A DNA stretch of 64,000 nt, from positions 3,410 through 67,409 of the IMG/VR virus record IMGVR_UViG_3300045988_143165. The stretch is one strand, 5' to 3'. Positions 16,131-46,643 of this stretch are shown in pieces. Both the position numbers and the translations under genes were made by a program. The notes under the pieces were generated by a model, which ran no database searches, had not been told where the DNA came from, and saw only the letters and a list, made by a program, of their open reading frames with translations. The stretch's first letter is position 1, and the number at the start of each line of letters is the position of its first letter. This DNA is from a virus.

Positions 16131-16718
16131 TTACATCACCTCTTTTATAGACTCAATGTATTCTTCCGAAGCGTAAAATGGAACACTCATTAACTCTCTC
16201 CGAATTTCGTCATACATCTTGTGTAATTTTGGATTAACCCATTTTTGCCATTCTCTGCGATTATCGGCAACCATTAAGGCTCTTACTTGTGTAGCCGAAA
16301 TAGGTATTTTTCCACGGCTTACAATAATTTCTGTAACATCCTTAATATCATCTGGGTCAAACCATCGAGACCGGCTTTCATCATTACCGTATATCATAAG
16401 TTCAGGCGTCTTATAAATATAACGGTCAATATTATCAAGTAAGTATCGACCCCATTCAGGTCTAATATCATTTTCATTCGTTAAATCAGAAATACCCTTA
16501 ATAATAATTGAGCCATCATCACCGTAAATAGCTCTCAACATTCTTATTCTTGTGTCAATGTTTAGTGGATTTCTTTCTGTTCCACATTCCTGCGAAGAAC
16601 CGACCAAAATTAACACCCTATCACACAGTTTTAACGCCGTATCAACAAGTGATTCGTGACCGATATGAAAAGTTTGAAATCTGCCACAAATAACACCTAC
16701 ATCATATGGTTTGCTCAT
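16131..16718 (-). CDS. nadM: nicotinamide-nucleotide adenylyltransferase (NadM/NadR-type NMNAT)
   Basis: ICGRFQTFHIGH, the (H/T)xGH motif, and a C-terminal ISATQVR (ISSTxxR) motif. Confidence 0.75.
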   Translation of the reverse strand: MSKPYDVGVICGRFQTFHIGHESLVDTALKLCDRVLILVGSSQECGTERNPLNIDTRIRMLRAIYGDDGSIIIKGISDLTNENDIRPEWGRYLLDNIDRYIYKTPELMIYGNDESRSRWFDPDDIKDVTEIIVSRGKIPISATQVRALMVADNRREWQKWVNPKLHKMYDEIRRELMSVPFYASEEYIESIKEVM

Positions 16719-22875: not shown

Positions 22876-22909
22876 TGATAAATCTCCAATTATCATTTAC
22901 AATATATTA

Positions 22910-23353: not shown

Positions 23354-23583
23354 TAATCAAAAATTCTCTTATAATCACAATGTCTCATATCGCCTTTATA
23401 TTTGCGTGCTTTCTTGCTTGATATTTTTTTAAGATACTTTTTATATTTCCTGCCACCACAAGAATATTTTATATATCTTCTTTTTTTCTCGTCATACCAA
23501 GCACCAGCACCATATGAATTCTTGGTTTCATTATAAAGTTTTTTAAGTCTGTGATTTCTTTCCTGACTTCTGCGATAACTCAT
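23335..23583 (-). CDS. small basic protein
   Basis: ORF rich in K/R/Y. Confidence 0.3.
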   Translation of the reverse strand: MSYRRSQERNHRLKKLYNETKNSYGAGAWYDEKKRRYIKYSCGGRKYKKYLKKISSKKARKYKGDMRHCDYKRIFDYWWELF

Positions 23584-24394
23584 ATTGCCCTCCCAAGTAT
23601 ATTAAATCATTGACATACTTTCGACCATCTTCCTTAAAAATAGGAGTTTCATTATCAATAATCCATTTACTTCTCCCTGTTGTTTCATCAATCTTACGAA
23701 TACAACAACTACCTCTCTTGTATTTCGTAGGACAATTATTCCAGTTGACACCTTTTTCGAGCATAAGCATATCCTGAATATCGCTTATAGATTTTTTATC
23801 TAACTGCTTATGAGAAAAATATGCTCTACCAACCATCTGAATAGAATTTCTGGTTGCATCATTCTGTCTCCAAAGCAAATTATTGCAAACCTCATCTTTT
23901 GGAATATTAAATACACGGGCATCAAACATTGCCCCTTTATCTATTGCTCTATTAAGTACCTCAATATATTCTGATTCGGGTGGAATATCTATATCTTGAA
24001 GTTCTAAAACCGAATTTATATAATCATTGGCTCTTTTATTGAAAAATTTATTAAAAGCCATTGTTGCCATACTGGCTGCAACGCTCGCACATTTTTGGAT
24101 ATTATAATCAAACCAAGCAGAAGTATCTATATTTCTGTAATCAACAAGAACAAGAGTAATCTCATCGGATTGTGTATATCCAAGAACGCAACCCTGAATA
24201 TTCTCACAAAGATACTTCATTGTCTCCTGCATAGTTTTAGAAAGCACATCATCAAAAGGTTTTTGAAAACCTCTTGTGAATGTATGAAATGCTTTACCGT
24301 CAATTCGTATAATAACTGGGGTTCGAGTTGTCAAATAGTGTCTCGACACAAATTCATACTTTTTCATTCTTTTATCAAATGCACTGTATTTCAT
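23543..24394 (-). CDS. Thg1-like protein (tRNA-His guanylyltransferase family, 3'-5' nucleotidyltransferase)
   Basis: N-terminal KYEFVSRHYL...VIIRIDGKAFHTFT matches the Thg1 family (FEYVR...RLDGRNFH). Confidence 0.65.
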   Translation of the reverse strand: MKYSAFDKRMKKYEFVSRHYLTTRTPVIIRIDGKAFHTFTRGFQKPFDDVLSKTMQETMKYLCENIQGCVLGYTQSDEITLVLVDYRNIDTSAWFDYNIQKCASVAASMATMAFNKFFNKRANDYINSVLELQDIDIPPESEYIEVLNRAIDKGAMFDARVFNIPKDEVCNNLLWRQNDATRNSIQMVGRAYFSHKQLDKKSISDIQDMLMLEKGVNWNNCPTKYKRGSCCIRKIDETTGRSKWIIDNETPIFKEDGRKYVNDLIYLGGQYELSQKSGKKSQT

Positions 24395-24828: not shown

Positions 24829-24904
24829 TGGTTGCAGGAGTGGGATTTGAACCCACGATTTTCAGCTTATGAGGCTGACGAGATAACCACTTCTCTATCC
24901 TGCA
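24829..24904 (-). tRNA. tRNA-Met (anticodon CAT)
   Basis: Full cloverleaf. Anticodon loop CTCATAA, T-loop TTCAAAT, CCA encoded. Confidence 0.8.
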
Positions 24905-24960
24905 ATATTGGCTGTTTTTGAAAGTGTCAGCCACACTTAACAACGAAATAGGATTATCTA

Positions 24961-25054
24961 TGGCTCATATAGGATTTGAACCTATGTCTCCGGCAGTGTG
25001 CCTGATTTACACTACATACCTCCGCCAGTGTCTTAACCACTTGACCAATGAACC
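24961..25054 (-). tRNA. atypical 94-nt tRNA-like gene (anticodon arm irregular or with an insertion)
   Basis: Good acceptor (GGTTCAT/ATGAGCC), D-arm (GTC-AAGTGGTTAA-GAC) and T-arm (ATAGG-TTCAAAT-CCTAT). Between D-arm and T-arm there are 39 nt with a 5-bp stem (CTGGC/GCCGG) enclosing 29 nt that include a 6-bp hairpin with a 9-nt loop. Confidence 0.4.
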
Positions 25055-25056
25055 TT

Positions 25057-25139
25057 TGGTGCTGGTGGCGAGATTTGAACTCGCACGCTTATAGCAACAG
25101 ATTTTGAGTCTGCCGTGTCTGCCATTCCACCACACCAGC
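25057..25139 (-). tRNA. tRNA-Leu (anticodon CAA), type II
   Basis: Anticodon loop CTCAAAA, long variable arm, T-arm GCGAG-TTCAAAT-CTCGC, CCA encoded. Confidence 0.75.
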
Positions 25140-25367
25140 AATTCATTTTTTTCAAAGCAGATGGAATAATCGCACTTGGATAAAAAGAAATAGCCAAATC
25201 ATTAACTAAAAATCACTAAATAAAATTTTATCTGTTTTTTTTCATCAATAATATGATATTTCTCTGCATCGCTTTTTGTTTAATAAGCCATACCATAAGC
25301 AACACCGCTTATAAATATTTCATTTATCAATTCCGCAAATTTATCTTTATTCATAATAGATTTCCAA

Positions 25368-25637
25368 TCAATTACCGACTACAATATAAAGAAACTTCTT
25401 GCCCCATTTAATCCATAAACAATCAAGTTCATTAAGAGTAAAAACAAGTTCGGGCTTATTCTTTCTAACTTCTCCGATTGATTTCACTATTCCGGCTTCT
25501 TTCATAATTGCTGGAAGAAATCTTGTATCGGTAAATAATGTCTTTTCTTTTTCATTGGTTTCCCAATCTATATCATCAAGAGCAATCAATGTTTTAGGTT
25601 CTACAATCGGACTTCCGATTATTACATTATGAAACAT
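25368..25637 (-). CDS. hypothetical protein
   Basis: ORF with RBS aaaggagagaacaaaATG. Confidence 0.35.
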   Translation of the reverse strand: MFHNVIIGSPIVEPKTLIALDDIDWETNEKEKTLFTDTRFLPAIMKEAGIVKSIGEVRKNKPELVFTLNELDCLWIKWGKKFLYIVVGN

Positions 25638-26211
25638 TTTGTTCTCTCCTTTCTAAAGTGATTTCAATACCAGTTAGCAACAGTTCAACTACTCTATGCC
25701 GAAACACTGTGAGTTGGTTTGCATAGCCACACCACATCCTCGCCTCATATTACCATTACTAACTGATATTTAGTCACCGTCATTCATTGTTCATACATTC
25801 ACTCTTGCAGTTCGTTATAAATGCACAATCATTTACTGTAATTCCTTTGAATGACTACTCATTATTCCTGCACTCTCGTATTTATAATTCCCTCACTATT
25901 GTGTTACCCCGAGTTATCGTATCGGTAGAGGGCGTAACGCCATATAAATGTCTAACAGAGAGTTTCTTTCTTCTCATTTATATAGTTGCTGTCAGAAACC
26001 ATCAGCCATAGGAGCAGTTTCCACGGAGTTCGCTAATGAGGATTTTGCGATTTGCATATGAAAGTATATTTACCCCACCTATATTCGCAGCGACAGCAAT
26101 ATTTTAATAACCAACTTTTTCATAATAGTGAGCATTGTTAAGAGGCTTTTATGCTTTTGGTATTGGTCGTGAGAGTCGGTTCTCAACCAACCTGTTGCGC
26201 CAACAGGATGT

Positions 26212-26304
26212 TGGCGGCGAGTGTAGGATTTGAACCCACGGGCGGCTCATCACCGCCGCCTGTTTTCAAGACAGGTGCAATAAGCCGGACTCTGCCAACT
26301 CGCC
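26212..26304 (-). tRNA. tRNA-Ser (anticodon TGA), type II
   Basis: Anticodon stem CCTGT/ACAGG, loop CTTGAAA, long variable arm, CCA encoded. Confidence 0.75.
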
Positions 26305-26353
26305 ATATTGCCGGTCTTTCCCGGCTGTCAATAGAGGTGAAACTTAATGAAAA

Positions 26354-26440
26354 GTGGTACTGGTAGTCGGACTCGAACCGACACGGCTTGCAGCCAACGG
26401 ATTTTAAGTCCGCTATGTCTGCCAATTCCATCATACCAGC
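26354..26440 (-). tRNA. tRNA-Leu (anticodon TAA), type II
   Basis: Anticodon loop CTTAAAA, long variable arm, T-arm GTCGG-TTCGAGT-CCGAC, CCA encoded. Confidence 0.75.
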
Positions 26441-26458
26441 ATATTAAATTTTCACTCT

Positions 26459-26536
26459 TGGCACGCCGAGCAGGACTCGAACCTGCGACCTCTTGATTCG
26501 TAGTCAAGCATTCTGTTCCAACTGAACTATCGGCGC
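26459..26536 (-). tRNA. tRNA-Arg (anticodon ACG)
   Basis: Anticodon stem CTTGA/TCAAG, loop CTACGAA, CCA encoded. Confidence 0.8.
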
Positions 26537-26774
26537 ATATGTATATGGCAAAGACCTTTATCTATCTAACTTTGCCCCTGTTAAACAGGTTTTAATCAGA
26601 CAAAAAAATACTCTTAATTTATCTTATGAAATACACAAAAACATAGAAAGGAAAGAGAGAGGTGAAAAATTCTGATTAGGTTTTGTAGTTATCGTATTTT
26701 GTTTTGCTCAATAATGTTTCTTAATGCTGGAAATTTCGGTCTCTTTGATTTTAGGGCTGCTGCCTTACCTCTTG

Positions 26775-26830
26775 GCGACTACCAACAATGTAGATAGGTG
26801 GGAATCGAACCCACGATTAGCAGCTTGATA
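26775..26830 (-). ncRNA. tRNA 3'-half-like cargo (T-arm plus 3' acceptor-like strand) inside structured-RNA unit (a)
   Basis: GTGGG-TTCGATT-CCCAC T-arm followed by CTATCTA. No matching 5' half was found downstream. Confidence 0.35.
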
Positions 26831-26969
26831 TTATGTATTTGAAGAAGGATGAAACCTTTCAGCCAGCTTATATTCAGAAATTTGAGGTTCTTATAATATA
26901 TAGATTAAAAGTCTATTCCTAATAGGTAGAAGGATGAATCTCAACAGCCGAATATTTATTTAACTTACA

Positions 26970-27035
26970 TTAGATATTATAGCACACATTTTACTATTTG
27001 TCAAGTGTTTTTCTCAATATTATTTCTAATTATTT
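26970..27035 (-). promoter_or_regulatory. consensus sigma-A-type promoter with conserved upstream element (P1)
   Basis: Minus sense: TTAGAAATAATATTGAGAAAAACAC, TTGACA, 17 nt, TATAAT. Confidence 0.55.
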
Positions 27036-27200
27036 GAAATTTATTCGATGCGGTAATTTTAACATCTAATAATACTATTGCACTACCAACTGTGCTACAT
27101 CCCATCTTCGATGGAATGGTGGGAGTCGAACCCACGACACATAGTTCCTTGATATATAGAAGGATGATGTTGGTCAGCCGCATATTTTGTATTGTGGAAA
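27030..27200 (-). ncRNA. Y-RNA-like structured RNA carrying a permuted tRNA-like module (unit c)
   Basis: Order on the minus strand: helix 1, internal loop, helix 2, AUCCUUCUA loop, ACTAT, variable GTGTC, T-arm GTGGG-TTCGACT-CCCAC, CATTCCA, loop TCGAAGA, TGGGATG, TA, D-arm GCAC-AGTTGGTA-GTGC, A, ATAGT, 7 nt, helix 2', loop, helix 1'. Acceptor-like strands pair 7/7 (one G-U) and anticodon-like strands 5/5, but the acceptor is capped by a loop. Confidence 0.55.
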
Positions 27201-27476
27201 TTTGTTTCTCTAAAATCTTAATCCCAAATCAAGTGCCTATTGGCGTAGAAGGATGAAAAACAATAGCCACATAATATTTAGAAAGAAGTGTGGGAATTTA
27301 ATGCTCTTTTTAGAAGAATTTGCAGTTCTTGATATTATGTAGAAGGATGAGCATTACAGCCACAAATTATGAATAGTGGAAATCGAACTTTCTATCTTAT
27401 CATCATTATGTAGGTGGCTTAACCACCGAAATTATTTTCTTGTAGAAGGAAGAAAGCCCATAGCCACAAAATACTT

Positions 27477-29726
27477 TTATAATAACTGACCCATAAAGTA
27501 ATCAGTATCGAAAGCCGTGATAATCGGAACTTCCGGCTTTTCCTTTACAACAGGTTTTGTAGTACCCGTAACCTCGTCAAGCTCATTTACAATTTCATAA
27601 GGTACTGTTGTATCATTGCTGAAAATGATGTCTGCTTCATTTCTATCTGTGACAATACTACCTCTTGCAATAGCATTCATCATTATGAGGTCATAAATAT
27701 TTGCCTTATTAAGATGTGTTAAGCCATAGCAAGTTGCGGTTACACCGTGTAAATTACTTTCAAGATTATTTCCATAAAACCTCGAACTTGCATTCTGAAG
27801 GTTCATATCACACCAAATGAATTTACGCTCAACGCAATCGAATATAACGGGTATAGCAACAGTGCTGTCAGCAGTTAAGTCAATCTTCATTTCAACTGTT
27901 TGCGGCTCGAATATCTCGCCGCTATTTATATCTTCTCTTTCCATCCATCCAAAACGGCAATTAGGAAGCGTAGAAAAATGCTGTCCTGTAAAACTATAAA
28001 CCTGAAATGCAATGTATCTACCAGTGTTTTTAGCAACTGCATCAATCTCTACATCAATAAACTCTGCTACACCATCACCATTAACATTTCCGCCATTGGT
28101 AATATCACCCGAATGATATGCTCTGTACTTTGCAGAGCGAAGTTGTGTGTATGATACACGGTCAACATACTGCCAATTTTCATCATAGATGGTTGCAGAA
28201 AGGTCAATATCAACCCTGCTTTCATCCCAGCTATTTCTCGTCTTATCGGTATTAGTCCACCAAATAAAACCACGAACAGCCGTAGCATCTTCCTTAATGG
28301 GCAATTTACTACCACGAACAATGGTCTTAACAGCCTTACTTGCACTTCTCTGACTAAACGGAACAAGGTAGTTTTTGAAATCCTCATCAATATAAACCTT
28401 TCCGAGAAAATCTTTTTCCTTGTACTGTTCAATTAAAGCCTCACGGCAAATCCTTGCAACATTTTTACATACATTGCTATTGATTTTAGGAAGTTCATTT
28501 CTGATAACCATAGCTTTTGCAAGGTTTCCTTTAGGAAAGAATACTCTTACAGGCTGATTATCATTCTCCATTCTTCCTATGAAATGCTGTCTTACCTGAA
28601 GGAGTACAGGAGTTGAGATTTCTGTTGCAACTTCCTTAAAACAGTTGACAATATAATTCGGATTATCTGCATCACGAACAAGTTTGTCAAGTTGCCTTGC
28701 GAACTCTCCGGGTCTTACTTTTAACAAGGTGGCAGCTTCACGCATATCTTTTGCGGTAATTGCTGCCTGAACCTTTCCTGCAAACATAAGAGGCTTTTTC
28801 TCGTTTCTTAAAGTATTGAATGCAGCGTTGACATTGCTATACTTTGCTTTTTTATATTCAAACGGATGAAGAATTTCTGCAACTCTAATCCATTCATACT
28901 GATAACGGAATAAATCCTCTGTTATGTTACCACAACCAGTAAGCAAGTCCATAATCATACGGCGTTCAACCCTACGAAGATTTCTGTACTTGGTTTTTGA
29001 AGCAAGGCTAATGTCGCCATCGGAAAGTGCTGTTACAAGTCGTAAAACATCCGTTGCGGTCTTGAAGTATTTGCCTATTGAATCGGCGCTTTTGATTGGC
29101 GCTTTTTCAATAATGAGTTTTCCAACGAATGCAACATTCTCTTTAAGAGGGATTGTATCAGGAAGATATGTAGTATAATCAGGACAAGCAAGAATGATAG
29201 TTTCAATGTCCTCTTTGTCCTGCTCCGAGATTGATGTCTTGCTCTCAACAAGATTTGTGAAAATAGTCATCAAATCATCGTGACTTCCTACTGATAAAAC
29301 AGCCATTTTATTGTCATCAATAAGCGGTAAACGCTCATTTTTTTCGTATTCGGGAATCAATGTGCCAAATGACCAGTAATGAACGATTGCATTGATAAAT
29401 AACTCAATGTCACTTGCTTCTGCAACCTGCTGTGGGAAGTTCGGGTACATTGGATTATATGTAACATCCGCACCAACAAGTTCTTTAAGTGCAGGAATAA
29501 GGAAACCATAGAAAGCAGTAAACTCATCTCTTGTAAAATGAAATGCTTTTTCAATAAGTTCCTTTGAAAATGTAAATCCAAGAGCCTGAACATTTTTCAA
29601 GCCGGAAACAACGAGTGCTTTTTCTGTCTTGCTCTGCTCATAAGTCATATTAGCAGGTTCAAACATCACTGAATGCTTACGGCGTAACAAAATCTTATCA
29701 AGTTCTGTTAATTTGAAATTCTTCAT
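27477..29726 (-). CDS. large hypothetical protein (749 aa). Alpha-helical N-terminal ~480 aa plus a C-terminal beta-rich region with a possible vWA-like DxSxT segment. Candidate RNA-binding partner of the flanking structured RNAs
   Basis: Long intact ORF with RBS aaaggagattattacaATG, flanked on both sides by the structured-RNA units. No secure motif recognised. A Ro60/TROVE-like assignment is only a hypothesis. Confidence 0.45.
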   Translation of the reverse strand: MKNFKLTELDKILLRRKHSVMFEPANMTYEQSKTEKALVVSGLKNVQALGFTFSKELIEKAFHFTRDEFTAFYGFLIPALKELVGADVTYNPMYPNFPQQVAEASDIELFINAIVHYWSFGTLIPEYEKNERLPLIDDNKMAVLSVGSHDDLMTIFTNLVESKTSISEQDKEDIETIILACPDYTTYLPDTIPLKENVAFVGKLIIEKAPIKSADSIGKYFKTATDVLRLVTALSDGDISLASKTKYRNLRRVERRMIMDLLTGCGNITEDLFRYQYEWIRVAEILHPFEYKKAKYSNVNAAFNTLRNEKKPLMFAGKVQAAITAKDMREAATLLKVRPGEFARQLDKLVRDADNPNYIVNCFKEVATEISTPVLLQVRQHFIGRMENDNQPVRVFFPKGNLAKAMVIRNELPKINSNVCKNVARICREALIEQYKEKDFLGKVYIDEDFKNYLVPFSQRSASKAVKTIVRGSKLPIKEDATAVRGFIWWTNTDKTRNSWDESRVDIDLSATIYDENWQYVDRVSYTQLRSAKYRAYHSGDITNGGNVNGDGVAEFIDVEIDAVAKNTGRYIAFQVYSFTGQHFSTLPNCRFGWMEREDINSGEIFEPQTVEMKIDLTADSTVAIPVIFDCVERKFIWCDMNLQNASSRFYGNNLESNLHGVTATCYGLTHLNKANIYDLIMMNAIARGSIVTDRNEADIIFSNDTTVPYEIVNELDEVTGTTKPVVKEKPEVPIITAFDTDYFMGQLL

Positions 29727-29821
29727 TGTAATAATCTCCTTTGTTTTAATTTGTCGGTAATCATTGAAACTATTTAGAACCCAATTTCTTTAATAGAAGG
29801 AAGTTTCAATATAGCCGTTAA

Positions 29822-29966
29822 GGGAAATTTGATGGAAATTTTATACTCTATTCTTGTAGGCGCTCTATCCGATTGAGCTAACTACCCACGGGGTAGTGCC
29901 GGGCTTGAACCGACAACCTCCTGCTTAACAGGCAAAAGATTTAGAAGGATGAGTATTTTCAGCCAT
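29822..29966 (-). ncRNA. Y-RNA-like structured RNA carrying a permuted tRNA-like module (unit g), immediately 3' of tRNA-Lys
   Basis: Same architecture as unit c. T-arm GTCGG-TTCAAGC-CCGGC, ACTACCC, loop CGT, GGGTAGT (7/7 complementary), TA, D-arm GCTC-AATCGGATA-GAGC, anticodon-like stem CCTAC/GCAGG (4/5). Clamp helices ttgatgg/ccatcaa and atactc/gagtat covary with unit c. The D-arm and variable region resemble the adjacent tRNA-Lys. Confidence 0.55.
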
Positions 29967-29968
29967 CA

Positions 29969-30044
29969 ATGGTGTGCCAGAGAGGAATCGAACCTCCGAC
30001 CTACCGATTAAAAGTCGATTGCTCTACCGATTGAGCTACTGGCA
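29969..30044 (-). tRNA. tRNA-Lys (anticodon TTT)
   Basis: Anticodon stem ATCGA/TCGGT, loop CTTTTAA, T-arm GGAGG-TTCGATT-CCTCT, CCA encoded. Confidence 0.8.
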
Positions 30045-30052
30045 CATATATA

Positions 30053-30128
30053 TTGGGTGGAAGTAAAGGAATTGAACCTTTTCTTGCAGTGTCACAAACT
30101 GCCGTGCTTACCGTTACACTAACAACCA
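30053..30128 (-). tRNA. tRNA-His (anticodon GTG) with encoded G-1
   Basis: Anticodon stem GCAGT/ACTGC, loop TTGTGAC, extra 5' G opposite discriminator C, two U-U pairs in the acceptor stem, CCA encoded. Confidence 0.7.
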
Positions 30129-30134
30129 CATATA

Positions 30135-30210
30135 TTGGAGCATATGGCTGGAATTGAACCAGCAATGACGGAGTTGCAGTCCGCTGCCTTAACCATTTGG
30201 CTACATATGC
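30135..30210 (-). tRNA. tRNA-Cys (anticodon GCA)
   Basis: Acceptor GCATATG/CATATGC, anticodon loop CTGCAAC, CCA encoded. Confidence 0.8.
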
Positions 30211-30597
30211 GTGTTTTGGCGGCTCTACGTCTTTCGTGTTGCAACACTTAAATTCTACCGCTAATTAGTGTCCTTTAGATAATCGTCATTATCGCACCCA
30301 CTAATAAAGGCTATTCCTTTCTTCATAGACTTACGAGAATTAGGTTTTTCAGACTTCTGGCAATTTCCATCTCTGGTTATTATACGAACACCTTTAACCC
30401 TTTGCCTCTATGCCGATTGTGTACTGAACATCGGGAAACATTTTGGAGATTTTATTTTGAGTCGTTGCTCCAACCCTCGACTTGCGAGTATATGCACCTT
30501 GTACTTCGGCATTGAGACTCGTAACTATGAATAAGAAAACCTTTCTCGTCCAATACAAAGGCTGTACCTTTTAATCGCATATTTATCTCTCACTTAC
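30211..30597 (-). other. 387-nt non-coding spacer between tRNA-Cys and tRNA-Trp (possible structured RNA)
   Basis: No ORF of 60 aa or more on either strand. It sits inside a co-oriented tRNA operon. No tRNA, RNase P RNA or tmRNA signature was recognised. Confidence 0.3.
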
Positions 30598-30673
30598 CTG
30601 GCAGGAGAGGAAGGATTTGAACCCTCATCTACATCGGTTTTGGAAACCGGAGTTCTCCATTAAACTACCCACC
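30598..30673 (-). tRNA. tRNA-Trp (anticodon CCA)
   Basis: Anticodon stem CCGGT/ACCGG, loop TTCCAAA, T-arm GAGGG-TTCAAAT-CCTTC, CCA encoded, one U-U pair in the acceptor. Confidence 0.75.
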
Positions 30674-30787
30674 TATATATTACCTTGCTTGTGGTATAAA
30701 CTCTGCAAGGCATAGAGTTTGTATCGTACCACTCAACCCCTTATTTATTCGCTTTATTTTAGGTATCTAATAATTGCGATTAGATTA

Positions 30788-30878
30788 CTGGCGGCGAGGG
30801 TGAGACTCGAACTCACACACCGTTTTCCGGCTACTAACAGTTTAGCAAACTGCTTCCTTACCATTAGGATTACCTCGC
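30788..30878 (-). tRNA. tRNA-Ser (anticodon GCT), type II
   Basis: Acceptor GGCGAGG/CCTCGCC, anticodon loop TTGCTAA, long variable arm, CCA encoded. Confidence 0.75.
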
Positions 30879-30881
30879 CAT

Positions 30882-30957
30882 ATGGCTGGGGTGGTTGGAC
30901 TCGAACCAACGAAATGCAGGAGTCAAAGTCCTGTGCCTTACCGCTTGGCGACACCCC
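30882..30957 (-). tRNA. tRNA-Gln (anticodon TTG)
   Basis: Acceptor TGGGGTG/CACCCCA, anticodon stem CAGGA/TCCTG, loop CTTTGAC, CCA encoded. Confidence 0.8.
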
Positions 30958-30962
30958 AATAT

Positions 30963-31037
30963 ATGGAGCGAATAGAGAGAATTGAACTCTCACTTCAAGT
31001 TTGGAAAACTTGCGTGCTAACCTTTACACTATATTCG
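30963..31037 (-). tRNA. tRNA-Gly (anticodon TCC)
   Basis: Acceptor GCGAATA/TATTCGC, anticodon stem CAAGT/ACTTG, loop TTTCCAA, CCA encoded. Confidence 0.8.
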
Positions 31038-31186
31038 CAAGTGGTTATTTATAAGGCTGTTTATCAAATTCCATTTACTACTGCTTCTGCCTTATATACG
31101 ATACCCGAAACGAACCCCAACATCAAATTGGGCTTATATATATCGCACATACTTCGTAGCACCTTAATAACCGATGAAATTATGTA

Positions 31187-34992: not shown

Positions 34993-35760
34993 CTAATTTG
35001 AATGATATTCAAAGCACGGCATTAACTGTAACTTGAACATATTTTTTTCGTGCATTTCGTTAATTTTTGCCTTTACTTTTTCGTCATCACATATTCCAGT
35101 TCTTATATACTTATCAAGAACTGCATAGGTGAAGCCAAAACTATCTTCATCTGTCTTTCCACAAAGTCCATCTGTCGGAGTTTTGTGTGCAAGCTCATTA
35201 GGTAAGCCACAATCCTCTGCTATGGCAATTACTTCTGTTTTTGTAAGCATTGCAAGAGGACTAAAATCTCCTGCTGCATCACCGTATCGTGTAGAATAAC
35301 CGATATAATCTTCCGAAAGATTGCAGGTATTCATTACTCTGCCATTCATTGATTGAGATACAGCATATAATGTAGCCATTCTCAAACGAGCAGGAAGATT
35401 GATTTTAGTCTGTTCTGAAATATCAATAGGATAATAACCGTCAAAATTTGGGTCATAGTAATCATCAATATTACAGATTATTCCATTGTATGCTTGTTCA
35501 ATATTAACCTCTGTATATTTGATACCAAGATGTGAAACCAACTTAATAGCAGAATCAATATCTTTCTGCACGCCATTTGGCATAAGCACACCAAATACCC
35601 TGTCTTTCCCAAGTGCTTCAACGCACAAAGCAGCAACCGTGCTTGAGTCTATGCCACCTGAAATTCCGATAATAGCATTACAGTCTTTTCCATTTTTTTT
35701 AAATATATCTCTTATCCATTCAACAACATCATTTTTGACTTTTATTACATCAAATGTCAT
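34993..35760 (-). CDS. nadE: NH3-dependent NAD+ synthetase
   Basis: PP-loop GISGGIDSS. About 255 aa, typical NadE size. Distal part of the NAD+ salvage gene set. Confidence 0.8.
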   Translation of the reverse strand: MTFDVIKVKNDVVEWIRDIFKKNGKDCNAIIGISGGIDSSTVAALCVEALGKDRVFGVLMPNGVQKDIDSAIKLVSHLGIKYTEVNIEQAYNGIICNIDDYYDPNFDGYYPIDISEQTKINLPARLRMATLYAVSQSMNGRVMNTCNLSEDYIGYSTRYGDAAGDFSPLAMLTKTEVIAIAEDCGLPNELAHKTPTDGLCGKTDEDSFGFTYAVLDKYIRTGICDDEKVKAKINEMHEKNMFKLQLMPCFEYHSN

Positions 35761-37220
35761 TAGAACTTACCTCCGTGCAATGTATTTCTTACTTCCGAAA
35801 GAGAGTATTCTTTTATCATCTTACCATCACTGAATATAGGCTGGAGCATATTATTCTCGTTATACGCCTCTGCCCAGGTATGACCATCTGTAAATGTGAG
35901 GTCTGAATTTACAATACAACAACCTTTTTGTGATTTCTTAAATCCACCGTCTTTTGGATTCTTAAAAATCGGCACAGATTTTCCGTTAATCTCACAATAT
36001 GTTGCTTTAATGCAAGAACTAAAGGTATCACGGGTAAAAGGCTTTAGAATACCATCTTCCTCAATGCACTGGAATGAGAAAGAACCAACTCCAAGCGCAA
36101 CGTTTGAGCAAGCAAAACCATTCTGCATAAGGATTTCATAGATTTGCTCACATCTCTGTACCGTAATACTATCACCATAAATAGCCTTAACGTGTGGGTC
36201 AAGTACTTTATATCCCTTGCTGTTTACTGTTCCGCCAAAAATATCCCACAGTTTGAATACTGTCCTTGTAACAACCTCAACACAATCACCGGAATCTCCA
36301 CGCATAAGCATACAACCATTGTGTGACATAATTTCAGGTTTTAATTCAGGAAGAACATTATCAATTATGTTCCAGTAATCATATGAATCAAGCACAGCGG
36401 AAAACGAATTATTGGGATAAATTTCCGCTAAAAGTCTGCGAAGAAGCGTAATTTCATCACCATCGACTGCATAATTACTACACATAACTGAATGCTCTGT
36501 GCTGGGTGAACCAAATGCCACAGGTTCTTTTGTGCAATCGCAATTATACATTGCCTCAAGATAGGGAACTGTCGGAACGGTTGCAGTATTCAAAAATGAC
36601 ATACACCAACCTGCACCAGCTTTAATTGCTGATTCTGTGCATTCCTCGCCTCTGAAATCAAATGCTCCGAGTGCTTTTGACTTTGGAACATCATCATCAC
36701 AAGTCAGGTCGTAATATTTATTTACAATCTGACGATATGTATATCCGACTGTTGCAGCCAACATAGGATGCCAGCTTTCAGCAGAAATAAGGCTTTCAAG
36801 AGCTTGTGGAAGCCAAGCGAAATCAGAATGTGTATTTGTAATTCCAAACATCGGAACGTGCATCGGTACAAGTGTTCCTTCAGGAAGTGCCACAATCTTA
36901 ATCGGAAGATAGCCGAGTTTGTGAAGTTCTTCAATCTTCTTAATACCGTAAACATTCTCTCCAAGAGAAGCATCCATAATTCTCTTATAATTTGCGATAA
37001 CCTCGTCAAAAGGTTTATTGAAAAATTCTTCGTTGAAATAATCAATAAGGTATGTTTTTATAAAACCCTGCAACCCAAACATAACAACCTTATCCCATCT
37101 CTTAACTCTCGTCATTCTCGGAGTAAAATAAGATACTGATTTTGTGATTCCTTTGGGCAACATTTCTGCGTGTACTGCCTTATAAAAATCAATAAGCAAC
37201 ATAGGATTTATCTTTCTCAT
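35760..37220 (-). CDS. nadV: nicotinamide phosphoribosyltransferase (NAMPT/NadV family)
   Basis: Aligns with human NAMPT along its length (IDFYKAVH/TDSYKVTH, LPIKIVALPEG, VLDSYDYWN/VSDSYDIYN, LMRGDSGD/IIRPDSGN, NSKGYKVL). RBS taaGGAGaattgaaATG at MRKINP. Confidence 0.85.
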   Translation of the reverse strand: MRKINPMLLIDFYKAVHAEMLPKGITKSVSYFTPRMTRVKRWDKVVMFGLQGFIKTYLIDYFNEEFFNKPFDEVIANYKRIMDASLGENVYGIKKIEELHKLGYLPIKIVALPEGTLVPMHVPMFGITNTHSDFAWLPQALESLISAESWHPMLAATVGYTYRQIVNKYYDLTCDDDVPKSKALGAFDFRGEECTESAIKAGAGWCMSFLNTATVPTVPYLEAMYNCDCTKEPVAFGSPSTEHSVMCSNYAVDGDEITLLRRLLAEIYPNNSFSAVLDSYDYWNIIDNVLPELKPEIMSHNGCMLMRGDSGDCVEVVTRTVFKLWDIFGGTVNSKGYKVLDPHVKAIYGDSITVQRCEQIYEILMQNGFACSNVALGVGSFSFQCIEEDGILKPFTRDTFSSCIKATYCEINGKSVPIFKNPKDGGFKKSQKGCCIVNSDLTFTDGHTWAEAYNENNMLQPIFSDGKMIKEYSLSEVRNTLHGGKF

Positions 37221-37231
37221 TTCAATTCTCC

Positions 37232-38368
37232 TTATACTGCATAATGAATGTTCTTGGTAGGACATCTTGAAAAACTCAAATATTCAACCTCTGTTGACCT
37301 TGCACAATCAACAACCTCTTTACAATCATCATCCTGTGAATATTTGATTTGAATATTTTCAGGACTAATACAATAGAGAAGTTTTTCAACATTATATTCT
37401 GCATCCGATACATTGAAATCAACTCTTACAAAATCATTACCTTTCTTATCTTCAAGCCATAAATAATCTTCATAATCTCCGAACATATCCAAACCGTAGT
37501 TTTTGTGCTGTGCTGTGAGTCCATTCTTATAATGAAGAACAATATTATATCTTAAATAATTATTAAGATTTACAATGTTCAAATCTTTAATAGCTTCCTT
37601 AAATGAAATTCCTGTGTTAATTTCAAATGCGATAGCTCTTAAACAGTCATAATTCAAATTTACTTTTCTTGAAAAAGCGATAATAGAATCAATCTCACCG
37701 TAATACTGTTCATCAAGTTTATCAATAAGATATTCCCGAACTTCCGTTGGTGTCGGATAATCAAATCTGAAATGATAATGAAATCTTCCCGGTCTGTTTA
37801 TTAGATAATTGTTTAACTTACCGAGGTCATTACAAGTAATAACAAACAATTTTTTGCCACCAGAAACACCATCAAATAAGCTCAAAAGATTTGCCTGTGG
37901 AGAAGCCTCTCCATCTCCTGCCTTTACTTCTCCAAATGTCTTATCGAACTCATCAAACAAAACCATAACCTCTTGGTCAATGCTTTCAATATATGATGCA
38001 ATGCCAGGAATATACCTATCTACAACAATAAGTGGAATATCTTTCTTCTGTGCTTCAATAGATAATAGCCTTGCAAATAAAGATTTGCCAATACCCTTAT
38101 CTCCACTTAAAATAACGCCAAGATTTCTGTTAAATTTGTCAAATGAGTTCAAAACCTTATTTACTTTTTCGATATGTACTCCGTAAACTTTATCTTCTTT
38201 TACTTCAATATCGACATACTTTTCAAGATAAAATCCCTTAAATTGACTAAATCTCACAACATAACTTTGTGTTGGAAATTTTTCATATGTTTTTAATGTA
38301 TCATCAAAAACCTCATATGAATTTCCAGAACTAATAACCTTCACTTTATTTTTCCCCCTAATCAACAT
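37232..38368 (-). CDS. AAA+ ATPase
   Basis: Walker A GDKGIGKS, Walker B VLFDEFD, sensor ITCN, RPGRF arginine-finger region. Embedded between nadV and prs. Confidence 0.6.
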   Translation of the reverse strand: MLIRGKNKVKVISSGNSYEVFDDTLKTYEKFPTQSYVVRFSQFKGFYLEKYVDIEVKEDKVYGVHIEKVNKVLNSFDKFNRNLGVILSGDKGIGKSLFARLLSIEAQKKDIPLIVVDRYIPGIASYIESIDQEVMVLFDEFDKTFGEVKAGDGEASPQANLLSLFDGVSGGKKLFVITCNDLGKLNNYLINRPGRFHYHFRFDYPTPTEVREYLIDKLDEQYYGEIDSIIAFSRKVNLNYDCLRAIAFEINTGISFKEAIKDLNIVNLNNYLRYNIVLHYKNGLTAQHKNYGLDMFGDYEDYLWLEDKKGNDFVRVDFNVSDAEYNVEKLLYCISPENIQIKYSQDDDCKEVVDCARSTEVEYLSFSRCPTKNIHYAV

Positions 38369-39261
38369 AAAATTAACTGGTCAATGCCCGAAAGCAATTC
38401 GGACAATTCTCTTGCAATTTCTGCTTGATATTCAAATACCTGTATCTTATCTGATAAGCCAAGAGAATTTGCATACTCTTTAACTTTATCAGTAAAAATA
38501 CTATTAGTAGTAAATACCTTTTTAATCAAACCACTTTTGAAAATTTCTCCATCAAAGATAGTTTTCTCGCAATGTGATATGTAAAGATATACATTCTTTG
38601 CACCGAGTTCTTTTAATTTCTTTGCTGAAAAATAGAATGTACCACCTCGGCTACTGATGTCATCAACAATGATAATATTGCTGTCATTGATTAAATCTTT
38701 TGCACCTGAAACATCAAGTCCTTCGATTTTTCCTGTTTCCCAATTACGCTTTTTAATTCCAAAAGCATAAGGCATATCGAGCATACCGGAATATCTTTTC
38801 ATTGCTCCTTCGTCTGGATAAAAAGCAATAAGAGGTTCATCATTGATTTCGTTTTTAATTTCCTTTATTACCTTTTCGATATAAGGTTTAGGGCTTTCAA
38901 CTTCGATATTGTTAATTAGAGCCTCACTGACAGATGAATGTGGGTCAAGAACAACAACCTTATCAAAATTAAGATTATTGATAAACTCTGCAAAATACTT
39001 TAATGTAAATACATCATTTTCGCTCTTTACCCTATCCTGTCTGGCATTTGGAATGTAAGGCATAACAAGATTTACTTTGTTAGCTCCAATTCTCCTTACG
39101 TGATTTGCAAGGAACATTATGGCAATCATTTCCTCATTGCTTTCAAAATGCCAACAAATAGTAACTGTATGATTGAAAATAAATTCAACATTAGGATTGA
39201 GTCTTAATGTTTCATCGGGAAACTTATTTATTGTTATTTTTTTTCCGTTAATTAAAATCAT
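38362..39261 (-). CDS. prs: ribose-phosphate pyrophosphokinase family (PRPP synthetase, or an ADP-ribose pyrophosphokinase Adps-like enzyme)
   Basis: MPYIPNARQDR (compare PYFGYARQDR) and IIVDDISSRGGT (PRPP-binding loop). Confidence 0.75.
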   Translation of the reverse strand: MILINGKKITINKFPDETLRLNPNVEFIFNHTVTICWHFESNEEMIAIMFLANHVRRIGANKVNLVMPYIPNARQDRVKSENDVFTLKYFAEFINNLNFDKVVVLDPHSSVSEALINNIEVESPKPYIEKVIKEIKNEINDEPLIAFYPDEGAMKRYSGMLDMPYAFGIKKRNWETGKIEGLDVSGAKDLINDSNIIIVDDISSRGGTFYFSAKKLKELGAKNVYLYISHCEKTIFDGEIFKSGLIKKVFTTNSIFTDKVKEYANSLGLSDKIQVFEYQAEIARELSELLSGIDQLILC

Positions 39262-39263
39262 AA

Positions 39264-39791
39264 TTATTCTCCTATAATATCAATCTGACACATCTTCATA
39301 GTAAGAAGTGCTGCCTTATGGCTTTCAGGTGTAACACCGGCACAGCAAGATACATCAACTGCAATGTGAATTTCTGGATAATTCGCTTTCAATAAAAGCG
39401 CATTGGAAACCACACATATATCTGTGCAAAGTCCGACCAATTCGATATATTCAATATTTTCTCCACAAATAAGTTCGGGAAGTGCCGTACTTCCAAATGT
39501 TCTTTTCTGCACATACAATATACTATCTTTACTTTCAAATAGAGCTTTTTGAACCCTCGTATTGATTCTATGACCATAGGTATTTTTAATACAATGCTCT
39601 ACCGGTAAACACTTACCTTCATTCGTATTCAAATAATCATCGCTGTGGGTATCAAGTGTAGCGATAATATCACCATCCCAATTATTGATTTTTTCAATGA
39701 CATTAGGAATAATTGCGACAGCTTCCGGAGTTCCAAGAGAGCCGTCAACAAAATCATTCTGCATATCGACTACAATCAAAAGTTTTTTCAT
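39264..39791 (-). CDS. pncA: nicotinamidase / isochorismatase-family hydrolase
   Basis: VVDMQNDF N-terminus, metal-site LDTHSDDY..PVEHCIKNTYGH and catalytic Cys in LVGLCTDICV, matching the PncA signature. Confidence 0.7.
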   Translation of the reverse strand: MKKLLIVVDMQNDFVDGSLGTPEAVAIIPNVIEKINNWDGDIIATLDTHSDDYLNTNEGKCLPVEHCIKNTYGHRINTRVQKALFESKDSILYVQKRTFGSTALPELICGENIEYIELVGLCTDICVVSNALLLKANYPEIHIAVDVSCCAGVTPESHKAALLTMKMCQIDIIGE

Positions 39792-42837: not shown

Positions 42838-43233
42838 TTAAACTGTTACCAGCACAGGAAATTGAATAGCGATAGCATTACTAATATTACATAATGTTTC
42901 TTTATCGCTTACTTTTCCAATACATTTATCAAGACATTCAATAGTAATTGTTGTAATCTGTTCTACAAGCAATGTACTCGGTGTCTTGAGTCCATACTTT
43001 TGATAACTCCACAACTCAACGTGTACCGGCAACTTTCTTTTATTCATTTTAGAAGTCAACGGAATTATGTTAAGTGTAGTGCTATATGTATTGTTTTTGT
43101 CATTAGAGAGAATAAAAACAGGTCTATATCCACTCTGAATACTACCATCTTTAGAAGTCAGATAGCACATCCAAATTTCGCCGCAGCGTGGGTATTCATT
43201 TAAGTTAGTCTTATTAAGCATAATCCATACCAC
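42838..43233 (-). CDS. MazF/PemK-like toxin endoribonuclease (solitary)
   Basis: YPRCGEIWMCYL...GYRPVFILSN...LNIIPLTSK matches the PemK/MazF fold signature. No antitoxin ORF of 60 aa or more lies adjacent. Confidence 0.5.
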   Translation of the reverse strand: MVWIMLNKTNLNEYPRCGEIWMCYLTSKDGSIQSGYRPVFILSNDKNNTYSTTLNIIPLTSKMNKRKLPVHVELWSYQKYGLKTPSTLLVEQITTITIECLDKCIGKVSDKETLCNISNAIAIQFPVLVTV

Positions 43234-43832: not shown

Positions 43833-44039
43833 TTACACCTCATCCCATAAAATTTCCAAACCCTTTAATAGAATTTCATCAGAACAATAGAATATATCTC
43901 CTTGAGTCCATCCACCCTTTGCTGCTGCATTAACCATTATTTGCCCTATGCGGAGTTCCGGGCAAGCATTACATATACATCCGAGATATTCTCTAATTTG
44001 GGCTTTAACTTCGTGATTTTCATAATCATTTTTATCCAT
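43833..44039 (-). CDS. hypothetical protein
   Basis: Small ORF. Confidence 0.3.
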   Translation of the reverse strand: MDKNDYENHEVKAQIREYLGCICNACPELRIGQIMVNAAAKGGWTQGDIFYCSDEILLKGLEILWDEV

Positions 44040-44992
44040 TACTTTGCCACTCCTTCAATCATACCGATAATTTTGTTGATTGCATCAATGTGAATAACAG
44101 GGTCGGTGTTATCTGCATTTTCTGCTCCGGCTTTATATGCCTCTTTGATAATATCTCTCAAAGAATTAGTATCAATACTTACTACGGGCTGCTCTGCAAC
44201 TTCCATATATGTTTTATCACCTGTGACATAATCATCAAAAAATGAACCCATATCATCATAGTAGGTGTCAATCTTCTTCTTTGTTAATCCGATATAGTGG
44301 TTTGTTGTTTTGGTATCGCTATGATTATAGATAGTCTGAAGGAGTTCCATACTATCATAATCATTTGGATGCAACATCCTACTAATCATACCAAAAGTTT
44401 TACGAGGACTATGAGTTCCAATGTTATACTCAATACCAACTTGAACAGCAGCCTTTTTCAAGCCTTTACGGTAGCCATCATCAGTAATAACTCTACCTTT
44501 ATAGTTTCCGCTGGTCTGCACAAAAACATAATTCTTATAATTGTTTTCGGCAGGATTGATACCTGTTTTTTCAATATAAAGCAGAATTGCTTTTTTACAA
44601 GCTGAATTGATATGAGGATTTGCGAGCTTGTCGGTCTTGTCCTCTACGATTTCAAGCAAGTCATTTCTCATCGCACCAGTTGTCGGATTAAAGAAATGCT
44701 CCCAAGTCAAAGTAAGTGTATCACCAATACGGCGAGCCATATTACAGGACAAAACGAAAATTAAATAATGTTGCCACATTTCATTTTGATAAAAGAAATC
44801 TATTAACTTCTTAATATCAGGAATTTCAATAGCATAAACTTCTGATTTCTTGCCTTTCTTTTTGTTGCACACAATATTTTTTGGTGTTCCATCTTTCTTT
44901 AATTTCGTTGCTTTATCCTGTTGAGGAAATTCAATAATATCAATTCCGACTTCCTGGAATAATGGTGTGATTTTTACTGTGTTTGTATTCAT
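44039..44992 (-). CDS. int: tyrosine-type site-specific recombinase (phage integrase)
   Basis: RIGDTLTLTWEHF (box I Arg), GTHSPRKTFG (H-x-x-R) and LLQTIYNHSDTKTTNHYI (catalytic Tyr region). RBS caGGAGGtagtgaaataATG. Confidence 0.7.
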   Translation of the reverse strand: MNTNTVKITPLFQEVGIDIIEFPQQDKATKLKKDGTPKNIVCNKKKGKKSEVYAIEIPDIKKLIDFFYQNEMWQHYLIFVLSCNMARRIGDTLTLTWEHFFNPTTGAMRNDLLEIVEDKTDKLANPHINSACKKAILLYIEKTGINPAENNYKNYVFVQTSGNYKGRVITDDGYRKGLKKAAVQVGIEYNIGTHSPRKTFGMISRMLHPNDYDSMELLQTIYNHSDTKTTNHYIGLTKKKIDTYYDDMGSFFDDYVTGDKTYMEVAEQPVVSIDTNSLRDIIKEAYKAGAENADNTDPVIHIDAINKIIGMIEGVAK

Positions 44993-45009
44993 TATTTCAC
45001 TACCTCCTG

Positions 45010-45100
45010 TGTAGTAAATCATTTACTATGGATAGTATATCATATGTATGCCAGAATGTCAATAATATTTTTGAATTTTCTCAATATTATTTTTAATCCC
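45010..45100 (-). promoter_or_regulatory. consensus promoter plus palindromic operator (P4)
   Basis: Minus sense: AAAAATAATATTGAGAAAATTC.., TTGACA, 17 nt, TATACT, then TAGTAAATGATTTACTA. Confidence 0.55.
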
Positions 45101-46262: not shown

Positions 46263-46643
46263 TTATCCTATAGTGAGAATAGCTGGATTGACTACCCCAT
46301 CGCCTTCATAGTTATATTCTTTGTTGTGCCATTTCCTTAATTCCTCTCCGTATTCCCAAAGTTGAGACAAGGCATTAACAGCACAACCATACATAAAACC
46401 AGTAATACCCTCTGTATCTGCTTCACGAGATGTACTATCTGCTATATCGACAATTTTATCCCCCGAAGCAATTCTGGATTCCATAAGATTTGCCCATCTT
46501 TCTGCATACCGCACAACTGCATTTGAATAAGGGTCTTTACTGTTTACTGTAACAAACTGATTATAATTTTCCTCTTGACCTGCTTTAATTTTCATTTGAT
46601 TTTCCTCCAATAATTTTAATCCGAGTAAAGTATTTAGTATCAA
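46263..46643 (-). CDS. hypothetical protein
   Basis: ORF. Confidence 0.35.
   Translation of the reverse strand: MILNTLLGLKLLEENQMKIKAGQEENYNQFVTVNSKDPYSNAVVRYAERWANLMESRIASGDKIVDIADSTSREADTEGITGFMYGCAVNALSQLWEYGEELRKWHNKEYNYEGDGVVNPAILTIG

Follow-up and report, generated by a model that had tools for sequence, protein, structure and literature searches.

Which NAD+-forming reactions might a compact cluster of NAD genes in a phage genome encode, and what would the phage use them for? The question is raised by a 64,000-nucleotide stretch of viral DNA (IMG/VR record IMGVR_UViG_3300045988_143165, positions 3,410 to 67,409; here called the window), in which five tightly packed open reading frames (ORFs), all on the minus strand, occupy positions 34993-39791. 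A sequence-only reading had placed five contiguous genes here, NadE, a NAMPT-family enzyme, an AAA+ ATPase, a Prs-family protein and PncA, and all five family calls were confirmed with Pfam and NCBIfam. The interpretation to which we lean is that the cluster is a phage-borne, "deamidated" variant of the NAD+ reconstitution pathway NARP1, in which four core enzymes would act in series on ADP-ribose (ADPR) and nicotinamide, the products of NADase defence effectors. It appears to be a form, not described so far, of a counter-measure that phages are known to have against NAD-destroying bacterial immunity, with the module apparently being carried as well by the hosts of this large phage, gut Clostridia.

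Pairs of Prs and Nampt homologs in phages are Adps (ADPR pyrophosphokinase) and Namat (nicotinamide ADPR-transferase), which together make up NARP1; the operational criterion for this pathway is a Namat homolog at most 10 genes away from Adps. A separate Nampt clade together with Nmnat constitutes NARP2, and no phage with both pathways was found (Osterman et al. 2024). In the series proposed here, PncA would convert nicotinamide to nicotinic acid, and the Adps-clade kinase would convert ADPR and ATP to ADPR-pyrophosphate (ADPR-PP). The transferase, referred to as Namat*, would join nicotinic acid and ADPR-PP to nicotinic acid adenine dinucleotide (NaAD), which NadE would then amidate to NAD+. 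We infer each of these substrates and products from the enzyme families and residues described below. Adps and Namat* would fill the slot that PncB and NadD have in the classical Preiss-Handler operon. A NadM-like adenylyltransferase encoded elsewhere in the window may serve a side branch based on phosphoribosyl pyrophosphate (PRPP), which would lead from nicotinate and PRPP via nicotinic acid mononucleotide (NaMN) to NaAD.

More than 150 independent contigs carry the four enzyme genes in one and the same order, thus the cluster is not a chance arrangement. In the window, a 2-nt gap, a 7-nt overlap, an 11-nt gap and a 1-nt overlap follow each other from PncA to NadE. No minus-strand terminator was detected inside the cluster, the promoter and terminator scans being no better than on shuffled sequence. 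The Namat* gene probably starts at M16 (37220), the choice of the gene callers in contigs that are 98% identical.

Among PDB entries, PncA matches true nicotinamidases best (P. horikoshii 1IM5, E 2e-14), and in the alignment the catalytic Asp/Lys/Cys are in place together with the D-x-H and His metal ligands. Compared with the Adps of SPbetaL1, whose activity was verified biochemically, the Prs homolog scores 167-177 bits versus 80 bits with E. coli Prs, and its best match among the solved structures of true Prs enzymes in the PDB reaches 72 bits. It has the Adps-type motifs DPHS and DD[IL]SSxGGT, and the catalytic Lys (K162 of SPbetaL1 Adps) aligns with a Lys in the stretch GIKKRNWETG. NadE is a single-domain, NH3-dependent enzyme with the P-loop SGGIDS; its best PDB matches are NH3-dependent NAD synthetases.

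The transferase scores 400 bits against the structure of SPbetaL1 Namat (PDB 9w5w/9w5x) and about 160 bits against the human and Xanthomonas (Xcc) Nampt. In a tree of NAMPT-family proteins it groups with Namat, and Vibrio Nampt is the outlier. Adps and Namat are directly adjacent in nearly all relatives; in the window only the ATPase gene lies between them, well within the 10 genes. The NARP1 signature that had been noticed in the pair of Prs and NAMPT homologs is therefore borne out. The sequence-only reading had also called the transferase clearly NAMPT-type and had matched it, together with the NMNAT homolog, to NARP2. Neither statement is supported: the enzyme belongs to the Namat clade, lies next to Adps and has lost the Asp that specifies nicotinamide. 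As both genes fall into the NARP1 clades, the NARP2 reading is unsupported.

The pyridine pocket of Namat* and its partner genes

The Namat structure revealed the residues contacting nicotinamide and an adenine "selectivity clamp", which is made up of the stacking residue R40 (SCL) and an 11-residue motif (SCH), GS-X-phi-X-phi-X-phi-TRD, whose positions 3 and 7 are aromatic; exchange of D215 for Ala reduces the activity of SPbetaL1 Namat 8-fold (PMC12774641). In human NAMPT the equivalent residue, D219, forms a hydrogen bond with the nicotinamide amide and sets the specificity. Nicotinate phosphoribosyltransferase (NaPRT) has a Ser there (Ser214), and the exchange D219S switches the substrate preference of human NAMPT (PMC4442680; PMC7096376; PMC4919578). 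The exchange D219A abolishes its activity with nicotinamide (PMC4919578).

In Namat* of the window, D215 is replaced by Ala and the neighbouring A242 by a Ser that would compensate for it, while the rest of the catalytic core (D13, Y15, F189, R192, H245, R306, D308 and TRD) is intact. Lacking the nicotinamide-binding Asp215, the protein thus falls outside the full definition of the NARP1 Namat core. Since the amide-binding Asp, the equivalent of the D219 determinant, is lost, the pyridine pocket is predicted to be of the nicotinate type. One phage clade (loci L137-142) shows the exact change from Asp to Ser at this position. Loss of the Asp, or a Ser, at the position that faces the pyridine substituent is a documented determinant of nicotinate preference, as in human NAMPT D219S and in NaPRT. 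In contrast to these, most of the phage proteins have Ala together with the second-shell change from Ala to Ser, and the donor expected here is ADPR-PP and not PRPP.

The clamp residues R40 and F392 are kept in Namat*, and position 40 thus carries one of the residues suited for stacking (Arg/Lys/Tyr). The SCH region of the window protein, GSFSFQ[CIEEDGILKP]FTRD, contains an insertion of 9 residues; with an aromatic residue at position 3 and Cys at position 7, the region does not conform to the SCH motif. The Phass-1 clade combines a canonical SCH clamp (GAYTYQYVTRD) with the Ala/Ser pocket, PncA and NadE.

Namat-family loci were gathered from IMG/VR viral contigs, isolate phages, near-identical metagenome contigs and GTDB assemblies with flanks of up to 10 kb, and the pocket was typed from alignments in 239 full-length loci. 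A pocket without the Asp was found in 206 of them (Ala/Ser in 199, Ser/Ser in 7), and an Asp/Glu pocket in the other 33. Gene presence was counted in those non-Asp loci whose flanks measure 4 kb or more to either side (n=150). PncA and NadE are both present in 146 of these 150 loci, and neither gene occurs in any Asp/Glu locus (0/33; Fisher p = 3e-27, uncorrected for shared ancestry). An Adps homolog is present in all 150. After dereplication at 80% identity the count is 24/24 non-Asp clusters versus 0/28 Asp/Glu clusters. The usual order is PncA-Adps-Namat*-NadE, and the association persists in rearranged gene orders and among proteins that are only 35-50% identical. It spans three clamp architectures: the window type with its insertion, the canonical type of Phass-1 and a Ser/Ser clade with a different insertion. 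The variant is very abundant in gut metagenomes; it saturated a search of 8,000 candidates.

A first tblastn search had suggested that many loci are without NadE. This was resolved by Pfam and alignment typing: the apparent absence went back to a glutamine-dependent NadE (CN_hydrolase plus NAD_synthase) that is too divergent for the short-NadE query, and to mistyped Asp-type sequences. The glutamine-dependent enzyme stands in for the short NadE in one cellular subclade (a 645-aa protein in 14 assembly loci), which indicates that the NadE function is kept by non-orthologous replacement. The near-perfect co-variation with the re-tuned pocket makes PncA and NadE integral parts of one four-gene module, and not genes that merely add Preiss-Handler steps as had been supposed before. 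Judged by gene content and pocket type, PncA-Adps-Namat*-NadE is one conserved module.

Related modules can contain a further gene. A macro-domain protein, Adpp, is the ADPR-1''-phosphate phosphatase of the NARP1-AP pathway (bioRxiv 10.64898/2026.01.28.702374). A Poa1p-like macro gene of the Adpp type lies inside 36 of 126 viral modules (29%), and the window is without a macro homolog. The macro protein of locus L004 matches Poa1p (6LFQ family) with E ~5e-8. In this locus as well as in L015, L029, L047, L061 and others the macro gene is located between Namat* and NadE.

A Glu at position 215 was seen in the Namat homologs of L162 (crAss-like phage cr111_1) and L121, which both lack PncA and NadE; in cr111_1 the gene order is Namat-x-Adps. 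These homologs may represent another pocket variant.

Cellular counterparts and the role of the module

A scan of GTDB yielded 80 loci, mostly from metagenome-assembled genomes of Lachnospiraceae, Ruminococcus, Acetatifactor and Oscillospiraceae; one is from an isolate, Pseudoruminococcus massiliensis. That all of these matches are binned phage contigs was ruled out by their cellular, nrtR-linked flanks. Most assembly loci have flanks unrelated to the viral contigs, and the two loci that were examined sit among ordinary chromosomal genes. Of the 80 assembly loci, 65 have an nrtR gene behind the module, whereas not one of about 110 viral loci has it. In the tree, phage copies are interspersed with cellular ones, therefore the module seems to have been exchanged repeatedly.

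NrtR is a Nudix-type repressor of bacterial NAD genes with ADPR as effector, and its known operons include nrtR-pncA-pncB-nadD-nadE in C. acetobutylicum and prs-nadV-nrtR in Shewanella and Acinetobacter (Rodionov et al. 2008, PMC2330246). The cellular operon pncA-prs*-nadV*-nadE-nrtR is a hybrid of these two known types, in which prs*-nadV* takes the slot of pncB-nadD, i.e., the step from nicotinate to NaAD. A hybrid operon with a nicotinate-type pocket is not listed in the tables of PMC2330246, and the phage copy differs from the operons there in being without nrtR. It is possible that the chromosomal operon is a housekeeping pathway for the recycling of ADPR. An ADPR-based operon may also explain the dedicated prs paralog in NrtR regulons, which was remarked upon as unexplained in 2008 (PMC2330246).

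The cellular copies bear on the role of the phage module. It might be a metabolic booster captured from the host, which keeps NAD+ high for replication and is not primarily a counter-defence. This explanation draws on the near-identical modules (~80-84% identity) in NrtR-regulated chromosomal operons of Lachnospiraceae and Ruminococcaceae and on the interleaved tree, and it is also favoured by the NAD-dependent ligase LigA encoded by the phage, a gene that had been recognised before and in which all NAD-ligase domains were found. LigA, however, yields nicotinamide mononucleotide (NMN) and AMP, not ADPR, so that the module would not recycle its products. Canonical NARP1 experimentally counters Thoeris, DSR1/2, SIR2-HerA and SEFIR, and a pathway based on ADPR has its substrate only during NAD+ cleavage, as argued by Osterman et al. 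(2024). Two further observations speak against a mere booster, namely the Adpp genes within related modules and a homolog of the type I Thoeris inhibitor Tad4, encoded 6.5 kb upstream of the NAD module and also called in the 98%-identical contigs. The Tad4 context plausibly fits a genome that is pressed by NAD-depleting defence, and it supports an anti-NADase role of the module. Taken together, we regard the booster as a rather unlikely primary role. The sequence-only reading had expected the gene set to counter NAD+-depleting defences; this expectation is plausible and is strengthened by the Tad4 homolog, but it is from the context only that we infer it.

Tad4 homologs were also seen near the NMNAT gene in the relatives L181, L187 and L194.

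The ribosyl donor

A chemistry based on ADPR is favoured for the module because the kinase belongs to the Adps clade, the clamp residues at 392 and 40 are kept, the SCH region is conserved and the Phass-1 clade has the canonical clamp. In addition, it is favoured by the Adpp-type macro genes in viral modules and by the gene for the ADPR-sensing NrtR that follows the cellular copies.

Several points weigh against the deamidated NARP1 variant. There is no published report of a reaction of nicotinate with ADPR-PP. Namat keeps a PRPP-dependent activity in vitro (Osterman et al. 2024), which makes a PRPP route conceivable. The 9-residue insertion of the window clade falls exactly at the adenine-stacking Y396 of the characterised Namat, and adenine recognition in this clade could therefore be altered or lost. 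The AlphaFold2 model of Namat* has a pLDDT of 36.9 (shallow alignment, all sequences >82% identity) and allows no structural inference on the insertion. The co-variation is phylogenetically dependent, the non-Asp proteins representing at most two or three deep lineages. The detour via nicotinate costs one extra ATP and has no obvious advantage over canonical NARP1. Finally, the cellular copies under NrtR control are evidence that housekeeping salvage is within the scope of the module, which leaves the anti-defence role in the phage to be read from its context.

The first of the two remaining alternatives is a Preiss-Handler pathway that is based on PRPP and fully encoded by the phage. The Prs homolog would make PRPP, the NAMPT-family enzyme would act as NaPRT and form NaMN, the NadM-like protein or host NadD would convert this to NaAD, and NadE would complete NAD+. 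In another branch of this alternative, modelled on Francisella, NadE would be an NMN synthetase and NadM would then form NAD+. This branch would be suited by 3FIU, the Francisella NMN synthetase, which ranks second among the PDB matches of NadE. The Ala/Ser pocket is NaPRT-like whatever the ribosyl donor, and the retained PRPP activity of Namat and the clamp broken at the Y396 position in the window clade point in the same direction.

A PRPP-based route would also draw on an NMNAT homolog, and the genome has one. The gene previously called a NadM-type NMN adenylyltransferase does have its best matches among NMNAT families (NadM, NadR, archaeal NMNAT) and carries the motif GRFQxFHxGH, but it scores below every curated cutoff and is without a Nudix domain. 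Of 126 viral non-Asp loci, 11 have an NMNAT homolog no more than 10 kb from the module, as against none of the 33 Asp-type loci, so that in this sample such neighbours are confined to non-Asp phages; they are, however, absent from this distance in the other 115 viral loci and in all 80 assembly loci. At least 14 module-bearing contigs have an NMNAT homolog, often about 70 kb from the module. It could be a loosely linked accessory that serves a PRPP-dependent side branch.

Against PRPP as the donor stands that the kinase is clearly of the Adps clade, and verified Adps makes no PRPP. The clamp is strongly conserved: all 206 non-Asp proteins have an aromatic residue at position 392, where the Vibrio Nampt control has Gly, and 199 of the 206 have Arg or Lys at position 40. 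Conservation of the SCH region is 0.92 versus 0.84 for the protein on average. In the Phass-1 clade, pocket and partner genes are the same although the adenine clamp is intact, and neither the macro genes of the viral modules nor the link of the cellular copies to NrtR agrees with a PRPP route. We therefore judge this alternative to be unlikely.

The remaining alternative, that Adps and Namat use ADPR and nicotinamide as in SPbetaL1 and that PncA and NadE are independent add-ons boosting the Preiss-Handler flux of the host (essentially the view of the sequence-only reading), can appeal to the NARP1 signature, to the assorted NAD-synthesis genes of gut phages (PMC11662467) and to the residual activity of D215A Namat, yet it is very improbable, as it leaves both the coupling of Asp loss to PncA and NadE and the fixed-order bracketing of Namat* by them unexplained, D219A abolishes nicotinamide activity in human NAMPT, and PncA from the phage would use up the nicotinamide on which a canonical Namat depends.

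Neighbouring genes and relation to known systems

The positions of the module genes and of other features are compiled in the table.

Features of the window and of related loci (positions refer to the window unless a locus is named).
Feature	Position	Strand	Evidence or remark
PncA-type nicotinamidase, first gene of module	39264..39791	-	Pfam Isochorismatase 75 bits
Adps-clade Prs homolog	38362..39261	-	Pribosyltran_N; TIGR01251 123 bits, cutoff 113
Classical-clade AAA+ ATPase	37232..38368	-	Pfam AAA; phrog_2376 E 4e-103
Namat-clade transferase (Namat*)	35760..37220, ORF to 37265	-	Pfam NAPRTase + NAMPT_N
NH3-dependent NadE, last gene of module	34993..35760	-	NAD_synthase 185 bits; TIGR00552 182 bits, cutoff 64
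NadM/NadR-type (Na)MN adenylyltransferase homolog	16131..16718	-	best NCBIfam and PDB matches all NMNAT families
LigA	12320-14269		NAD-dependent ligase
Tad4 homolog	46263..46643	-	PF25186 E 4.6e-38, 130 bits, cutoff 25
PurZ-like protein	2970-4169	-	phrog_1211 "2-aminooxy adenylosuccinate synthetase", E 7e-55
DHH phosphoesterase	18972-19853	-	near NMNAT gene
Calcineurin-like phosphoesterase	20511-21281	-	near NMNAT gene
DUF488-N3a protein	22036-22896	-	near NMNAT gene
Thg1-like tRNA-His guanylyltransferase	23543-24394		adjoins tRNA blocks
tRNA genes, two blocks	24829-31038	-	Met, Pro, Leu x2, Ser x2, Arg, Lys, His, Cys, Trp, Gln, Gly
Protein of 231 aa	33286-33981	-	C-terminal YAcAr/SLOG domain, 64 bits
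PemK/MazF-like toxin	42838-43233	-	73 bits
Tyrosine recombinase/integrase-family protein	44039-45022	-	
Chromosomal operon pncA-adps*-namat*-nadE-nrtR	L310 8632-14324		Pseudoruminococcus massiliensis NZ_OLMR01000003.1; among ordinary cellular genes
Chromosomal operon pncA-adps*-namat*-nadE-nrtR	L253 8635-13151		among ordinary cellular genes
Macro-domain gene	L004 13063-13686		
Rnl2-like RNA ligase	L004 9034-9783		
Rnl2-like RNA ligase	L084 8138-8911		

The AAA+ ATPase had been singled out as foreign to every described NARP operon, and its distribution agrees with this. Only the window and its 98%-identical relatives have it between Adps and Namat*; in a sister clade (L004, L083-85) it is found a short way upstream of Adps, and in L033 and L139 a few kb away. 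In Herelleviridae and further large phages of Firmicutes the family phrog_2376 is widespread, with no NAD genes next to it. Foldseek with the AlphaFold2 model (pLDDT 68.6) returned generic matches to classical AAA unfoldases (Bcs1/FtsH/PAN/Mpa/p97) with TM scores of 0.3-0.38, and no match was obtained in the PADLOC defence library. A part in NARP is ruled out by the distribution, by which the ATPase is to be seen as a lineage-specific insertion unrelated to the pathway. In the sister clade a gene for an Rnl2-like RNA ligase is located between the ATPase and Adps genes.

The window is of phage origin, as seen from PHROG families, a primase-like protein and 13 tRNA genes. Its helicase is closest to that of Clostridium phage D-1873 and of phage contigs from human faeces; a nucleotide search of the phage collection with the window returned no close record. 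The tRNA blocks coincide with a stretch of higher GC without long ORFs. The PurZ-like gene, which may code for PurZ or PurA, makes a replacement of adenine by 2-aminoadenine (Z-genome) in this phage a possibility. The 231-aa protein is encoded two genes downstream of NadE, and its N-terminal part weakly matches reverse-transcriptase fragments (phrog_1423; Drt5/Drt8 in PADLOC); several relatives likewise encode a homolog downstream of the module. Ligands derived from nucleotides have been proposed for SLOG domains. The genes for the PemK/MazF-like and the integrase-family protein lie between the NAD module and Tad4 and are kept in the 98%-identical contigs. Like Clostridium phage D-1873, the isolate to which it is most closely related, this phage may have a temperate or plasmid-like life style. 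Three further genes cluster near the NMNAT gene.

Compared with known systems, the module resembles NARP1 of Bacillus phage SPbetaL1 and E. coli phage Bas63 most directly: a phage-encoded kinase of the Adps clade stands beside a transferase of the Namat clade, the Adps Lys, the His/Arg core of Namat and the clamp residues are shared, and ADPR and a pyridine base are the expected inputs. It differs from NARP1 in the pocket (Ala, or Ser in one clade, for Asp215, and Ser for A242), in the insertion within the SCH region of the window clade and in the obligatory bracketing by PncA and NadE, and the predicted product of Namat* is NaAD, not NAD+. Like NARP1-AP (Adps, Adpp and Namat) it is an extended NARP1 operon, but in the window the extension is on the pyridine side (PncA, NadE) and not on the ADPR side. 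With NARP2 (Nampt and Nmnat, as in Vibrio phage KVP40) it shares the presence of a NAMPT-family enzyme, accompanied in the same phage genome by a putative enzyme of the NMNAT family; unlike in NARP2, the transferase is of the Namat clade, stands beside Adps and lacks the Asp specifying nicotinamide, and the NMNAT gene is 19 kb away. NARP3 consists of PnuC and NadR and was rejected as the identity of the cluster; no match to PnuC or a nicotinamide riboside kinase was found among the ORFs scanned, which cover part of the window. PncA and NadE are shared with the classical Preiss-Handler pathway, in which PncB and NadD take the place of prs*-nadV*. No PncB-type or NadD-type gene was found in the module or among the scanned ORFs; these contain a single phosphoribosyltransferase, of the NadV/Namat type, and a single adenylyltransferase, which is NadM-like.

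The variant is not described in the NARP1/2 preprint, the Namat structure, the NARP3 and NARP1-AP (aRES) work, RyDEP, the Iyer/Aravind survey and the NAD literature on gut jumbo phages, nor was it found in targeted full-text searches, a coverage that leaves subscription-only literature mostly outside. We give even chances to the proposal that the Namat* enzymes catalyse an undescribed reaction, from nicotinic acid and ADPR-PP to NaAD. PncA-Adps-Namat*-NadE would then be the fourth pathway of NAD+ reconstitution, a "deamidated" one that abounds in gut phages and would also serve housekeeping recycling of ADPR under NrtR in gut Lachnospiraceae and Ruminococcaceae.

If the interpretation as a deamidated NARP1 variant is true, it would add a new reaction and a four-gene architecture to the recognised NARP1, NARP1-AP, NARP2 and NARP3. 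Asp versus Ala/Ser at one position would then predict which pyridine is used, and thousands of metagenomic genes labelled NAMPT/NadV could be re-annotated. Removal of free nicotinamide by hosts or defences may be what the deamidated pathway is adapted to. It would also tie a phage counter-defence module to a cellular operon of dominant gut Clostridia and would bear on deamidated NAD metabolism in the gut.

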